Shown here: one piece after another, positions 6,261 to 16,020 of the stretch
Numbering within the stretch: position 1 is the first letter of the stretch
How the letters are laid out: the number at the start of each line of letters is the position of its first letter
From: Vicinamibacterales bacterium
GTDB lineage: Bacteria > Acidobacteriota > Vicinamibacteria > Vicinamibacterales > 2-12-FULL-66-21
Reading direction: 5' to 3'
Length of the DNA stretch: 64,000 bases
Assembly (NCBI GenBank): GCA_036496585.1
Contig: DASXLB010000037.1
Span: 3,497-67,496, forward strand
Translations under genes and position numbers: made by a program
Notes under the pieces: generated by a model
The model's database searches: none
Told to the model about the DNA's origin: nothing
The model's input: only the letters and a program-made list of their open reading frames with translations

Positions 6261-6288
6261 GTTAAGGTGACGCTAAGAGATTGTTAAG
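6261..6288. promoter_or_regulatory. Three G(T/C)TAAG hexamers at 11-bp spacing; putative OmpR/PhoB-family binding site
   Basis: GTTAAG 6261, GCTAAG 6272, GTTAAG 6283; an OmpR-family regulator gene lies at 12123. Confidence 0.5.
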
Positions 6289-6304
6289 GACGTAAAACCT
6301 TGCG
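6281..6304 (+). repeat. 24-bp direct repeat, left copy (TTGTTAAGGACGTAAAACCTTGCG)
   Basis: Exact match to 10057-10080. Confidence 0.95.
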
Positions 6305-6457: not shown

Positions 6458-9400
6458 ATGACGACACTCGCCAAAGTCCGATGCTTCGTAGTGGACCGCA
6501 CAAAGGGCACACCGGTCCCGGGCATCGCGGTCGGGCTTGGCACGATGACCGACGCCGGCGACCTCGTCCTGCTCAGCATCCTGTCTTCGGACCGCGTGGG
6601 ATACCTGTCCTTCGACGTGACCCGTTTTGCCGCGCTGCTGGCTGACAGCCGGCTCTGGCTCTGGCCGCTCCTCGATACCGCCAATCGTCTGTCGGCCTCA
6701 CCCCGCGCCGGCGGGGTGTCGCCCGGCAGTGTTCCGCCGCGAGACAACGACAACGTCCCTCCGGGGTTGTCCGATGGCGGAGATTCTCCGTGCGTCCCCG
6801 TGGTGCTGAGCGTGGATGGACGGACGGGCGCCGACGCCTGTGACGTCGCCACCTGGCCGTCGATCCAGAATCCAGATTCGTGTGACTACCAGCAGTCGCC
6901 GGGATCGTTCGTCACCAGACCGCGGAAGATGCTGGGGGACGACTGCTGCGAGACGCTCCTGCCGAGCACGCTCCCCAGCCAGAGCCTCACATTCCGTCGC
7001 GTGATCACTCGGGGGATCGATGTCTCGACCCTCTCGACAGGTACCGCACCGGCCGGCAGCGGTCACACCACCACGGTGGCGCCTCCGCCCCCGCACATCT
7101 CACCGATAGACGTGACGGCCCTGCCGATCGCTCCTCCGGTATCTGGCTTCGCGTACGGCGAAATCCTGGACTATCGACAGGAGTGGTACTCGCTGGGTCA
7201 CTCCCTGGGAGACATCCGCTACAGCCTGGCACTCGCGCCGGGCGAGGCGGTGGAGATCGCCGTTGTCGATTGGTCGCGGCAGGACCAGGTCTCGCGCACC
7301 GACGACATCACCTCCCGCGAATACCTCGCCAATCAGCTGGTGCGGGACCGATCGATCGGCGAAACCGTCGATTCCATGCTCAACGAGAGCCAGGATGGAT
7401 GGTCGCTGATGGGGGGCACCGCTGGTGCGGCCAGCTACAGCTACGGCACGTTCTCCATCGCGGCCGACCACTCCGTCGGCGGATCCATCGCGCACACGTC
7501 GGGCACGCGCAACATCGAAGCCGACTCCCTGCAATCGCTCCACGACCAGACCGGTCAGGCCACGGCCGTCGTTCGCACGCTGAACTCCACCGTGGTGATG
7601 CAGTCGACGCAAGCCGAGCAGAACGTCGTGCAGACGCGTCGGGTGGCGAATCACAATCATTGCCATGCGCTGACGATCGAGTACTACGAAGTCTTGAAGC
7701 ACTTCCGCCTTCGCACGACCTTCACGGGCCGCCGCGCGGCGATCCTGCTCCCGTTCGTGCCGTTTCAGTTCGACTGGAGCCTCGCACTGAGGTTCCAGTC
7801 CGCCCTCGTGCCAGCCCTGCTCGACGCGTCGCTGGCGAGCGCCTTCGATGCCATCTCGCGCTATCACCTTGGGAGCGCGTTGTATGCCGCCGCCACCGCC
7901 AGCACTGTCCACGCCGCGACGCCGGGGTCGACCGCGACCACGCAGTACTTCACGGGACAGAAGAGCGTGGCCGTGGCGGCTGCGAGTGCCAACGATCCGA
8001 GTCTGTACCTGCAGAAAGGCTCGCGCGTGCGGATGACCGCCAGCGGCAAGGTGGGCATCGGGGAACTGGTCGACACCAGCGGCGGCTACGATGCCGACGG
8101 CAACGGCCAGTCCGCCGACAACGGCTGGTATGCGCCAGGGAAGTTCGAGTACTCGCTCATCTGTCGCGTGGGAAGCACGTGGTACCAGGGTGGCACGTCT
8201 ACAGAGTTCGTCGCGTCGGACGATGGCTATCTGACGCTACAGGCCAACGACCACGTCGGGAACTTGAGCGACAACAGCGGCAGCTGGGCGGTCGACGTGA
8301 ATGTCATCGCACCGCAATCCTCACCCGGCGACTCGGTGCCCGCCGTGCCGGACCCGACGGCTCCTCCCGCGGCCTTTACCAAGGACGGAGACGCCTACGC
8401 CGAGAGCCTCTTGCTTCGGCACCTGAACGGCAATCGCGGGTACTACAACCGGGTGGTGTGGCTGGCGCTGGATGATTCTGATCGCCGCCTCTATCTTGAC
8501 GCGGCCCTCGCCGGCGTGCCGGGAATGTCGGCCCAGGTCGACTCGTATCCCCTCGCGGTGTCGGGCAACAGCGTGGCCTTTGGCTTTGACGGACAGACGC
8601 CGTTGTGGTCTGACACGCGCCCCACGGATCCGACGGCGCCCATCGAGACCATCGTCACGCTCCCCACCCGCGGCGTGTTCGCGGAGGCCATGCTGGGACA
8701 CTGCAACGCCTGCGAGCCGCGCGACATCACTCGCATGTGGGACTGGTCGATCATGACCACCGAGGAACCGCCCGCCATCAGTGATGTGACACCGGGCCCG
8801 CGCGGTACGCCGGACACCGTCGCTCCAGGTTCGTTGCCCCAGAACGTCGTCCAGATTTCGCAGCCGCCGGCGGCTCCTGACCCGACCGGTCTGGCGGCCG
8901 CGCTTCGCGTGCTCGGCACGCCGAACGTCTTCCGTGACATGTCAGGTCTGAGCGAGGTCAGCAGTCTGCTGGGCACGCTGGCAAACGGGGCGGTCACCTC
9001 GCTCTCGGGCGCCCAGAAGATCGCGCAGCAGGCGCAGCAGAAGGTGCAGGCTATCCAATCTGGGTCAGCCGGCGGCGCCGGCACATCGACCGGCACCCGA
9101 CCGACGGCCGCTCAAACGTACGACAACCTCACGGCGGCCAAGGAAATCGCCAAGAATGCCGGAACCCTGGGTTGGGATCCGCAAACGACCGCCGAGGTGA
9201 CGAAGGCGGTTGTCATGGGCGATGGGAACCCCGACATCGTCCAGACCGGCGGCGCCGGAGCCAGTGTTGGCGTTGCGGCAGCCCTCGACCTGACAATCAA
9301 GACCGGCGAGGCCGTTGGCAAGCTCCTGGTGCCGTCTGGCGCCATCACGGTCAGCGGCTTCGAGAGCGGACAGTCGCTGCTGGCCGGCGCCTCGGATCCC

Positions 9401-9973
9401 GGGATGTACGTAGACGACGACACCTCCACCATCGAGTTCACCTTCATCGATCTGGGCGCGTCACGGTGGAGTCTGGGAAACACTCCGCCGGGCGGACTCA
9501 ATGGAACCGTCAGGGTCAGTTGGGTGAACTGCGTCCCCAACATTCAAAAACTGCCCTCGACTATGGTCCCCACAAGTCGGGACGACTACATGTCCTTCGT
9601 GAGGATTGTTGGCAACATGGAATTCAAGCGGCAGATCGGGACCTTGGAATACTCCGGCTTCGTGCTGTCACCGACAGACGCGCTCGACAGCGCCGCGGTC
9701 ACGTTCGAACTGATGTCTGAAGCGTGGCCGATTGGCAGCGAGGTTCCGACGCCAAAGGAGTCCCATGCGACGGTCCGACTGACGATTCAGTACGCGCGCA
9801 AGACTCTCCTTGGCGGCGAGATCGTCGGTCCGACCGCCAAGACGTTCCCGCTCATCTCGCCAAAGAACGGCGGGCCGTCGCGGTACTACATTTCCAATCA
9901 GTCGGGCACCAGCGACGTGACGAGCATCGTGGTGACGCCGATGGACCCGGGCGGCACGGTTACGACTCTGTAG
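6458..9973 (+). CDS. 1171-aa modular protein with internal LecA/PA-IL-like lectin domain; candidate toxin or pore-forming protein
   Basis: Long ORF with RBS (AGGAG) before ATG 6458; lectin-like segment LTLQANDHVGNLSDNSGSWAVDV; Ser/Gly-rich segment; Cys/His motifs ANHNHCHAL and LGHCNACE; no obvious signal peptide. Confidence 0.8.
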   Translation: MTTLAKVRCFVVDRTKGTPVPGIAVGLGTMTDAGDLVLLSILSSDRVGYLSFDVTRFAALLADSRLWLWPLLDTANRLSASPRAGGVSPGSVPPRDNDNVPPGLSDGGDSPCVPVVLSVDGRTGADACDVATWPSIQNPDSCDYQQSPGSFVTRPRKMLGDDCCETLLPSTLPSQSLTFRRVITRGIDVSTLSTGTAPAGSGHTTTVAPPPPHISPIDVTALPIAPPVSGFAYGEILDYRQEWYSLGHSLGDIRYSLALAPGEAVEIAVVDWSRQDQVSRTDDITSREYLANQLVRDRSIGETVDSMLNESQDGWSLMGGTAGAASYSYGTFSIAADHSVGGSIAHTSGTRNIEADSLQSLHDQTGQATAVVRTLNSTVVMQSTQAEQNVVQTRRVANHNHCHALTIEYYEVLKHFRLRTTFTGRRAAILLPFVPFQFDWSLALRFQSALVPALLDASLASAFDAISRYHLGSALYAAATASTVHAATPGSTATTQYFTGQKSVAVAAASANDPSLYLQKGSRVRMTASGKVGIGELVDTSGGYDADGNGQSADNGWYAPGKFEYSLICRVGSTWYQGGTSTEFVASDDGYLTLQANDHVGNLSDNSGSWAVDVNVIAPQSSPGDSVPAVPDPTAPPAAFTKDGDAYAESLLLRHLNGNRGYYNRVVWLALDDSDRRLYLDAALAGVPGMSAQVDSYPLAVSGNSVAFGFDGQTPLWSDTRPTDPTAPIETIVTLPTRGVFAEAMLGHCNACEPRDITRMWDWSIMTTEEPPAISDVTPGPRGTPDTVAPGSLPQNVVQISQPPAAPDPTGLAAALRVLGTPNVFRDMSGLSEVSSLLGTLANGAVTSLSGAQKIAQQAQQKVQAIQSGSAGGAGTSTGTRPTAAQTYDNLTAAKEIAKNAGTLGWDPQTTAEVTKAVVMGDGNPDIVQTGGAGASVGVAAALDLTIKTGEAVGKLLVPSGAITVSGFESGQSLLAGASDPGMYVDDDTSTIEFTFIDLGASRWSLGNTPPGGLNGTVRVSWVNCVPNIQKLPSTMVPTSRDDYMSFVRIVGNMEFKRQIGTLEYSGFVLSPTDALDSAAVTFELMSEAWPIGSEVPTPKESHATVRLTIQYARKTLLGGEIVGPTAKTFPLISPKNGGPSRYYISNQSGTSDVTSIVVTPMDPGGTVTTL

Positions 9974-10056
9974 CAGGCCCACGACGTGAACCCGCACATT
10001 TGACCTGCCACGACTTCACGGGCTCTCCCCGGACCGCAAGACCGCAGGGAGAGAGT

Positions 10057-10080
10057 TTGTTAAGGACGTAAAACCTTGCG
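10057..10080 (+). repeat. 24-bp direct repeat, right copy
   Basis: Exact match to 6281-6304. Confidence 0.95.
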
Positions 10081-13358: not shown

Positions 13359-14237
13359 ATGCTCAACGACGCGCACTGCCATTTCTTTTCCTCGCGGTTC
13401 CTCGAGCTGCTCGCGCCCGGGGCCGGCGCCGCCGACGTTGTCGCGGCCCGCCTGCAGTGGGATCCGCCCGGGACGCCGACCGAGCTTGGCGACCGCTGGG
13501 TCTCCGAGCTGGATCGGCACGGGATCGGCCGCGCGGCGCTGATCGCCTCGGTGCCGGGAGACGCCGTATCGGTCGCCGAGGCGGTGGCCCACCATCCGCA
13601 CCGCCTGGTCGGCTTCTTCATGCACCATCCGCTCGCGCCTGACGCCGACGCCACGATCGAGCACGCTTTCGCCGACCTGCACATGCGCGGCGTCTGTCTG
13701 TTTCCGGCGATGCACGGCTACCGGCCCGACGATGCCTGCGTTGAGGCGGTGTTCCGGGCGGCGGCGGCGCATCGCGCCGTGGTCTTCGTGCACTGTGGCG
13801 TCCTGACCGTCGGCGTGCGGCGGAAGCTTGGTCTCACGAGCCGATTCGACCTCCGGCTCGGCGATCCGCTCGCCGTGGCGCGCATGGCCCTCGACTTTCC
13901 GCACGTGCCGGTGATCATTCCGCACTTCGGCGCCGGCTACTTTCGTGAAGCGCTGATGGCGGCCGATCAGTGCGCCACGATCCATCTCGACACGTCGAGT
14001 TCGAACGGCTGGATCCGCTTTCACGACGACCTGACGCTCGAGCGTGTCTTCCGCACGGCGCTCGGCGTCGTCGGCGCCTCGCGCCTGCTGTTCGGGACCG
14101 ATTCGTCGTTTTTTCCGCGCGGATGGCAGAAGGCGATTTACGACGAACAGCAGCAGATCGCCGCGGCGCTCGCGCTTGGCGAGGAGGAGCGCGCCGCCAT
14201 CTTCGGCGGCACGTTCGATCGGCTTTTCCCTGTGTAG
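13359..14237 (+). CDS. Amidohydrolase_2 family metallohydrolase
   Basis: DAHCH metal motif; FVHCG; IIPHFG; LLFGTDS. Confidence 0.85.
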   Translation: MLNDAHCHFFSSRFLELLAPGAGAADVVAARLQWDPPGTPTELGDRWVSELDRHGIGRAALIASVPGDAVSVAEAVAHHPHRLVGFFMHHPLAPDADATIEHAFADLHMRGVCLFPAMHGYRPDDACVEAVFRAAAAHRAVVFVHCGVLTVGVRRKLGLTSRFDLRLGDPLAVARMALDFPHVPVIIPHFGAGYFREALMAADQCATIHLDTSSSNGWIRFHDDLTLERVFRTALGVVGASRLLFGTDSSFFPRGWQKAIYDEQQQIAAALALGEEERAAIFGGTFDRLFPV

Positions 14238-14289
14238 CCCGCGAGGCCGGCAGCAGCGGGCCCAGGCGGGGGTCGCTATAATCGCGGCC

Positions 14290-16020
14290 ATGCGAACGAA
14301 TACGATCGCGCTCGTCAGCTTTTCGGTGATCGTCGCCGGGCTCTCGCTCCAGGCGCAGCGCGGTGCGGCGCCCGCGCCGGCGGCCGATCTGGTGCTGACC
14401 AACGGACACATCGTCACGGTCGAACCAGCGGCGCCGGAGGTCGAGGCGCTCGCGGTCAGCGGCGGCCGGATCGTGGCGCTGGGCACCGCGGCGGCCGTGG
14501 GGCGGCTGATCGGGCCGTCGACGAAGGTCATCGATCTGCACGGGCAGCTGGCGATCCCGGGGTTCATCGAGAGCCACGGACACTTCACCGGCGTCGGCGG
14601 GACGCAGCTCGAGCTCAACCTGATGAACGTCGACTCGTGGGACCGGATTGTCGCGATGGTCGCCGAAGCGGTGTCGCACGCGAAGCCGGGACAATGGATT
14701 TACGGCCGCGGCTGGCACCAGGAGAAGTGGAGCAGCCGGCCAGAGCCGAACGTCGAAGGTTTCCCGACACACGCGTCGCTCGACGCGGTCTCGCCCGACA
14801 ATCCGGTCGTGCTCGAGCACGCGAGCGGTCATGCGTCGTTCGTGAATGCGAAGGCGATGGAGCTGTCGGGCATCAAGCGTGCGACCGAGAGCCCTGCCGG
14901 CGGAGACGTCCTGCGCGACAGAAAGGGCGACGCCACCGGCCTGATGCGCGAGACGGCGCAGCGTCTGATCAAGGAAGGCGCCGGCGAGCCGCCGCCCTCC
15001 GCGGCGGAGCGGCTGGCGCACGATCGCAAGGTGCTCGAGCTCGCCGACCGGGACGCGCTCTCGAAGGGCATCACCACGTTCGAGGATGCCGGCTCGCCGC
15101 TCGCCACGATCGATCTGATGAAGCAGATGGTCGACGAGGGGAGCCTCGGAGTGCGTCTCTGGGTGATGGTCCGGCAGCCGAACGCGATCATCGCGCCGAA
15201 GCTGGCGCAGTACAGGTTGATAGACCACGCCGACGGGCATCTCACCGTGCGTGCGATCAAGAAGCAGATCGACGGCGCGCTCGGGTCGCGCGGTGCGTGG
15301 CTGCTGGCGCCGTATACCGACAAGCCCGATTCGAGCGGCCTCGAGACGGAGAAAGTGGCCGACATCGAGCAGACGGCGGGTTTGGCGATGGCCAACGGCT
15401 TCCAGTTGTGCGTCCACGCCATCGGCGACCGGGCCAACCGGGAGACGCTCGACATCTTCGAGCGCGCGTTCAAGGCGAACCCCGCGAAGCAGGATTTGCG
15501 CTGGCGCGTCGAGCATGCGCAGCACCTGAGCGCCGCGGACATTCCGCGCTTCGGCCGCCTCGGCGTGATTGCGTCGATGCAGGGGATTCACTGCACGTCC
15601 GACGCACCCTACGTGCTGCAGCGCCTCGGCCCGGCGCGCGCCCAGGAAGGCGCCTACGTCTGGCAGAAGCTGATGAAGAGCGGGGCCGTGGTCGCCAACG
15701 GTACCGATGCACCGGTTGAAGACGACGACCCGATTCCCAACTTCTACGCCAGTGTCAGCCGCAAGCTGAAGGACGGGACGGTCTTCTATCCCGATCAGCG
15801 CATGTCGCGCCTGGAGGCGCTGCGCTCCTACACGATCAACGGCGCCTACGCCGGGTTCGAGGAGGCCAACCGGGGCTCACTCAAGCTCGGCAAGTACGCC
15901 GACATCACGGTCCTGTCGAAGAACATTCTCGAAGTCCCCGAGGACGAGATTCCGACCGCCAGGGTGGTCTACACCATCGTCGGTGGCCGCGTGCTCTACT
16001 CTGCGGCGGACCGACCGTAA
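14290..16020 (+). CDS. Amidohydrolase_3 (YtcJ-like), exported
   Basis: Signal peptide; IPGFIESHGH, VHAIGDRAN, RVEHAQ, NGTDAP, GSLKLGKYADITVL; start moved to ATG 14290. Confidence 0.9.
   Translation: MRTNTIALVSFSVIVAGLSLQAQRGAAPAPAADLVLTNGHIVTVEPAAPEVEALAVSGGRIVALGTAAAVGRLIGPSTKVIDLHGQLAIPGFIESHGHFTGVGGTQLELNLMNVDSWDRIVAMVAEAVSHAKPGQWIYGRGWHQEKWSSRPEPNVEGFPTHASLDAVSPDNPVVLEHASGHASFVNAKAMELSGIKRATESPAGGDVLRDRKGDATGLMRETAQRLIKEGAGEPPPSAAERLAHDRKVLELADRDALSKGITTFEDAGSPLATIDLMKQMVDEGSLGVRLWVMVRQPNAIIAPKLAQYRLIDHADGHLTVRAIKKQIDGALGSRGAWLLAPYTDKPDSSGLETEKVADIEQTAGLAMANGFQLCVHAIGDRANRETLDIFERAFKANPAKQDLRWRVEHAQHLSAADIPRFGRLGVIASMQGIHCTSDAPYVLQRLGPARAQEGAYVWQKLMKSGAVVANGTDAPVEDDDPIPNFYASVSRKLKDGTVFYPDQRMSRLEALRSYTINGAYAGFEEANRGSLKLGKYADITVLSKNILEVPEDEIPTARVVYTIVGGRVLYSAADRP

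Follow-up and report, generated by a model that had tools for sequence, protein, structure and literature searches.

A PA-IL family lectin domain in an exchangeable internal slot of a 1171-residue protein from a Vicinamibacterales bacterium

LecA (PA-IL; PDB 1OKO/3ZYB/4CP9; PF07828) of Pseudomonas aeruginosa is a free, tetrameric lectin of 121 amino acids (aa), in which O3 and O4 of galactose coordinate a calcium ion, hydrogen bonds to the sugar come from His50, Gln53, Asp100, Thr104, Asn107 and Asn108, and galactose O6 is bound in the His50-Gln53 loop, His50 and Gln53 also stacking the aglycon (PMC9300185). PllA of Photorhabdus (PDB 5ODU/5OFZ) is a stand-alone lectin, and EclA of Enterobacter cloacae (PDB 6YGQ), a 283-aa two-lectin protein with a LecA-type domain (EclA-N) at its N-terminus, was called the first LecA-domain fusion by its authors (PMC11875179). 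Embedded lectin domains are also in established use in polymorphic toxins, where carbohydrate-binding domains contact target cells and a conserved N-terminal body gives way abruptly to an enzymatic, hypervariable C-terminal domain, with peptidoglycan hydrolases among the warheads (PMC3482391). Here we describe a LecA-like domain internal to a 1171-aa protein of a Vicinamibacterales bacterium (assembly GCA_036496585.1), encoded within a 64,000-nucleotide (nt) stretch of contig DASXLB010000037.1 (positions 3,497 to 67,496), hereafter the window. An earlier note on this DNA had proposed a galactophilic, LecA/PA-IL-like domain at 7946–8310; this segment is open in frame 1 and corresponds to residues 497–617 of the single 1171-aa open reading frame. 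In contrast to EclA, where the LecA-type domain is likewise fused to another domain, the domain here lies mid-chain in a non-lectin scaffold.

When only one sequence was used, the PA-IL signal was borderline. The segment alone matched PF07828 at 22.1 bits (E 1.6e-4, profile positions 6–117 of 121) against a gathering score of 22.5 bits, the match scored 17.2 bits with the whole protein as query and 21.7 bits in a genome scan that found no other PA-IL domain, and a single-sequence search of PDB chains returned a PA-I lectin and PllA only at E 0.1–0.5. An alignment of 40 segments homologous to residues 486–630 (mean column identity 29%) gave a consensus that reproduces the LecA pattern, and 27 of these orthologous modules matched PF07828 individually (E ≤0.01, best 1.8e-9). 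Searched against PDB chains, the 40-module profile covered the full domain and matched PllA best (E 1.4e-15), then a PA-I lectin entry (1.5e-15), LecA (2.7e-13) and EclA-N (7.5e-12), with no unrelated match better than 2e-6. The AlphaFold2 (AF2) domain model built from this alignment reached a mean predicted local distance difference test score (pLDDT) of 92.8, with lower confidence in loop 536–545. Its top 11 Foldseek matches in PDB were all PllA, LecA or EclA-N, with a target-normalised template modelling score (TM) of 0.72–0.80 and a root-mean-square deviation (rmsd) of 2.3–2.8 Å for LecA and PllA, and the predicted jelly-roll beta-sandwich superposed on LecA across the whole domain. Sequence profile, Pfam and predicted fold thus support residues 499–619 as a PA-IL (LecA/PllA/EclA-N) domain, i.e., a new member of an already known lectin family. 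The mid-protein lectin of the earlier note was borne out, as was the fold it expected; the search it had proposed against the PA-IL family gave matches for 27 of the 40 orthologous modules and fell just short of the cut-off for the segment alone.

Calcium ligands were taken from published lists (PMC9300185 and PMC11875179) and mapped through the profile alignment, with a direct check of each residue. All three side-chain ligands are present, i.e., D598 (LecA D100), D605 (N107) and N606 (N108), and the main-chain ligand positions are occupied by I534 (LecA Y36) and N602 (LecA T104). The loop N597-D598...N602...D605-N606 corresponds to LecA N99-D100...T104...N107-N108, consistent with the earlier note's remark that it keeps the Asp and the terminal Asn. 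LecA Asn107 is replaced by Asp here, as in PllA and EclA-N. The best profile match, PllA, shares the Asp-Asn pair ending the loop and differs by a shorter loop between its G-P-D-G motif and the central strand, while the EclA-N ligands Asp114, Asp121 and Asn122 have the same D-x3-X-x2-D-N spacing. Among the 40 modules, the D598 position is Asp in 39, the D605 position is Asp, Asn or Glu in all 40, and the N606 position is Asn in 39. That these ligands are nearly invariant despite the low mean column identity argues that the metal site has been maintained, and a calcium-dependent sugar site is likely, judging from the conserved residues.

The protein carrying this domain belongs to a large family. 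An exhaustive HMMER scan recovered 3216 cluster representatives at E ≤1e-3 (1444 at E ≤1e-30) from Pseudomonadota, Bacteroidota, Cyanobacteria, Bacillota, Actinomycetota, Thermodesulfobacteriota and Acidobacteriota. In pairwise alignments, the conserved body extends from residue 1 to about 920, coverage dipping at 495–640 and collapsing after 925. We surveyed the internal dip as a slot anchored on its two flanking core blocks (Table 1) in 221 relatives, every one of which carried an insert of roughly 120–250 aa, with one outlier of 433 aa. These inserts were of PA-IL type in 78 relatives (all E <1e-10 against the 40-module profile) and of another type in 143. The two types share no detectable homology (hhalign probability 0.6%), and we therefore rejected the idea that the second consists of divergent PA-IL domains. 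Weak Pfam matches to PLAT/LH2 in 4 of 70 non-PA-IL inserts (best E 7e-4) and PLAT/LH2 atlas feature scores of 0.78 offer a lead, and only a lead, to their identity. In a tree built from the concatenated cores, the insert type must have switched about 9 times, and the largest clade with PA-IL inserts only (59 tips, support 0.95) includes the Vicinamibacterales protein. Two or three PA-IL copies stand in tandem in the slot of relatives P0029 (aa 545–935) and P0045 (aa 544–801), which suggests avidity tuning. Given this slot exchange, the switches of insert type and the tandem copies, the insert behaves as an exchangeable recognition module would. The full-length AF2 model places the lectin between two disordered linkers, and with non-homologous domains in the same slot of scaffold relatives this agrees with the linker-flanked inserted module pictured in the earlier note.

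The scaffold itself matched no described family by sequence. Pfam, NCBIfam, PADLOC and PHROGs scans of the 1171-aa protein gave no match besides PA-IL; 50 segments of each core yielded no recurring family in Pfam, and the two core profiles retrieved nothing from PDB sequences. Whole-protein searches of the ESM atlas returned unnamed clusters only. Relatives lack a functional name except for one 1600-aa protein, called "LecA/PA-IL family lectin" by NCBI, and automatic annotation already flags a PA-IL domain in some of them. Within the searchable literature, EclA is the sole LecA-domain fusion on record, and no description seems to exist of either the host family or its internal-slot architecture.

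A second variable position lies at the C-terminus. Alignments of 119 relatives stop at about aa 920, marking a sharp junction to a hypervariable tail, as in polymorphic toxins. The tails are mutually unrelated (6% mean column identity), and 26 of 100 scanned had a Pfam match whose position was confirmed to lie in the tail. These were Glyco_hydro_25 (6), DUF4056 (4), DUF3238 (3), Peptidase_C70 (2), OmpA (2) and Peptidase_C92 (2), along with Peptidase_M23, Rv2525c-like glycosidase, Amidase_2, Amidase_6, PG_binding_1, DUF5995 and C39-like, each in a single tail. Most of the recognizable tails hydrolyse or bind peptidoglycan.

The gene is a 3.8-kb single-gene insertion with a target duplication and without a recombinase. 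A 29-nt direct repeat brackets this gene alone and occurs nowhere else in the genome, and in five congeners (loci L009–L013) the site is empty, i.e., the two flanking genes are adjacent and a single copy of the motif is present; the junction alignment shows a clean insertion. The G+C content is 65% inside the insertion and 68–70% outside. The gene was horizontally acquired. None of 40 relatives from its genus, family or order was found to carry it, and the protein family is patchy: of 301 genomes that sample the phylum, only 6 have the scaffold.

As the best explanation of the whole, we favor with moderate confidence a calcium-site lectin module that docks a polymorphic effector on a bacterial envelope glycan. 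Specifically, the PA-IL jelly-roll, keeping the calcium site of its family, would most likely bind carbohydrate through calcium and would act as the recognition module, set between flexible linkers at one fixed position of a conserved scaffold of ~920 aa. Since the tails of relatives are mostly peptidoglycan hydrolases or binders, the lectin would most likely dock the protein on an envelope glycan (lipopolysaccharide, capsule, exopolysaccharide or wall polymer), after which the scaffold and C-terminal domain would act on the cell wall. The protein would then follow the logic of a polymorphic antibacterial effector or bacteriocin made of a single chain; pesticin and LlpA are lectin- or receptor-domain bacteriocins for comparison. 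Embedded lectins in polymorphic toxins (PMC3482391) match such a design, although the present protein differs from those toxins in having its recognition module in an internal slot instead of at an end, and a scaffold without homology to any described toxin.

Several observations weigh against this interpretation. The lectin copy studied here lies just below the Pfam cut-off, its residues at the galactose O6 pocket differ from those of LecA, and EclA-N, which has a similar pattern and keeps the calcium site, is without a known ligand (PMC11875179). No signal peptide was recognized at the N-terminus, which opens with a beta-sandwich, no formal signal-peptide predictor having been run. The Pfam, NCBIfam, PADLOC and PHROGs scans found no known trafficking or secretion domain (polymorphic toxins carry PAAR, RHS, LXG or TPS), and neither an adjacent immunity gene, another difference from polymorphic toxins, nor a conserved neighbor was found in the window or at five other loci. 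Among the tails scanned, 74 of 100 have no Pfam assignment. The protein's own tail is an orphan, with no Pfam or atlas match and no homologue among 5.8 billion proteins, whether searched within the full-length protein or by itself. Because it has no detectable relative, a cell-wall activity could be assigned to it only by position, from the tails of related proteins.

The lectin might instead anchor the protein to the surface glycans of its own producer, making it a self-envelope remodelling enzyme or autolysin. The presence of non-catalytic peptidoglycan binders (OmpA, PG_binding_1) beside hydrolases among the tails fits this idea, as does the missing immunity gene. Nevertheless, we consider it unlikely: the patchy distribution, the horizontal single-gene insertion and the polymorphism of both tail and slot fit conflict systems better than housekeeping, and an enzyme of the producer's own envelope is also at odds with the lack of a recognized signal peptide.

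It is even less probable that the domain is truly galactophilic and, as LecA and PllA do, binds alpha- or beta-galactosides in the same pocket. The fold and the calcium ligands are shared, and PllA, which also has Asp at the Asn107 position, binds galactosides (PMC11875179). At residue level, however, the label "galactophilic" given in the earlier note was not supported: LecA His50, Pro51 and Gln53 are replaced by Ser552, Ala553 and Asn555 in a loop reading Ser552-Ala-Asp-Asn555, the corresponding columns are among the most variable in the 40 modules, and loop 536–545 is one that AF2 modelled at lower confidence. A LecA-type galactose pocket is thus not likely from these substitutions. The O6 pocket defines galactose specificity and not PA-IL family membership; EclA-N is without it too, its galactose residues not being conserved, as here.

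An explanation of similarly low probability holds that the domain is a degenerate beta-sandwich that binds no sugar and has a part only in structural spacing or oligomerisation. The sub-threshold Pfam score would suit such a role, the slot tolerates unrelated domains, and LecA-family domains oligomerise (PMC11875179, PMC9300185). Against this, modules averaging 29% column identity hardly vary at the three side-chain ligands of calcium, a pattern that is difficult to account for unless the metal site is functional. Finally, we doubt that the protein is a lectin-targeted beta-barrel pore-forming toxin (beta-PFT) with 314–349 as the membrane hairpin and the lectin as receptor-binding domain: the full-model Foldseek matches that follow the lectins are all pore-state beta-PFTs (alpha-haemolysin, aerolysin, NetB, protective antigen and lysenin; E 3e-4 to 2e-2) and AF2 draws very long strands at 232–259, 305–326, 335–356 and 405–432, but these matches have a TM of about 0.1 and an rmsd >25 Å, the region has pLDDT <45, and 314–349 is without beta-amphipathic hydrophobic periodicity.

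The gene is present as a single copy in its genome (Table 1), with an AGGAG box 7 nt before its ATG; a promoter and terminator scan found nothing. Overall, the full-length AF2 model (pLDDT 62.6) runs from a confident N-terminal transthyretin-like sandwich through a core of long strands and helices to the lectin, and on through a helical/beta core 2 and a conserved Pro-rich segment to an unmodelled tail. A conserved Cys-containing segment (aa 139–164) follows the N-terminal sandwich. Core 1 contains a Gly/Ser/Ala/Thr-rich segment (314–349) and an invariant N-H-N-H-C-H motif (398–403), and core 2 comprises a helical bundle, a beta unit, an H-C-N-A-C-E motif (748–753), the Pro-rich segment and helices. 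These two (near-)invariant His/Cys motifs, at 7649–7666 and 8699–8716 of the window, may link the two core blocks through a metal site or through a centre for catalysis or autoprocessing.

Table 1 Features of the lectin-bearing gene and its insertion (window positions)
Feature	Position	Strand	Remarks
Whole gene, 1171 aa	6458..9973	+	homologues align from residue 1–5
N-terminal transthyretin/CarboxypepD_reg-like beta-sandwich	6464..6826	+	aa 3–123, disordered loop 84–107
Scaffold core 1	7133..7927	+	aa 226–490, highly conserved
PA-IL (LecA-like) lectin domain	7952..8314	+	aa 499–619
Predicted Ca2+/sugar loop	8246..8275	+	N597-D598-H-V-G-N602-L-S-D605-N606
Scaffold core 2	8390..9232	+	aa 645–925
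C-terminal variable, putative "warhead" position	9233..9970	+	aa 926–1171
29-nt direct repeat bracketing the gene, left copy	6276..6304	+	
29-nt direct repeat bracketing the gene, right copy	10052..10080	+	28/29 identical

Downstream of the gene come gaps of 100–500 nt and then unrelated genes, both in the window and at five other loci. At these five loci, too, it stands alone among unrelated genes, in one case within a conjugative element: in Bradyrhizobium sp. A11 (L001; CP149509.1, 4091213–4115205), the relative lies in an integrative conjugative element and adjoins a serine recombinase and Trb/VirB conjugation genes. Locus L003 (relative P0036) has a flanking direct repeat of ~210 nt, 86% identical, at 9600–9800 and 14110–14310, the upstream copy of which is the 3′ end of a DUF885 gene, and at the loci of four other relatives there was no exact flanking repeat of at least 14 nt. 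Elsewhere in the Vicinamibacterales genome, type VI secretion sheath (TssC/VipB) genes lie on other contigs (C39:8993–9901 and C50:190976–191803); as these are unlinked to the gene, and relatives also occur in Gram-positive genera, a dependence on type VI secretion finds no support. We likewise rejected a phage origin (no PHROGs match, and no BFVD match at E ≤0.001), a known defence system (none by PADLOC or NCBIfam) and a relation to Tc toxins, which was raised by an AFDB match at rank 8 ("TcA C-terminal TcB-binding domain") and left unsupported by scans of the cores against Pfam and PDB.

Work on the LecA family has dealt almost entirely with small, free lectins involved in virulence, and EclA, reported in 2024, is the one characterized fusion. 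The family described here makes the PA-IL fold a common plug-in module of a very large uncharacterized group of proteins from Gram-negative and Gram-positive phyla, and supplies glycobiology with a natural set of PA-IL variants that share the calcium site and differ in their specificity loops. The insertion in the Vicinamibacterales genome is in turn a clean example of single-gene horizontal transfer with an identifiable empty site. More tentatively, it is possible that the gene represents a widespread, unrecognized class of single-gene antibacterial weapons, built from a ~920-aa delivery scaffold, a plug-in receptor slot and a cell-wall warhead. If so, the slot would take either a PA-IL lectin or a PLAT-like module that binds a lipid or a surface, the genes would be one-gene cassettes that move between genomes of many phyla and duplicate their target site, and the whole would amount to a bacteriocin architecture like that of colicins or pesticin on an undescribed fold. 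Together, a recognition slot and a putative cell-wall warhead would provide a functional handle on thousands of "hypothetical" proteins of 1100–1600 aa.
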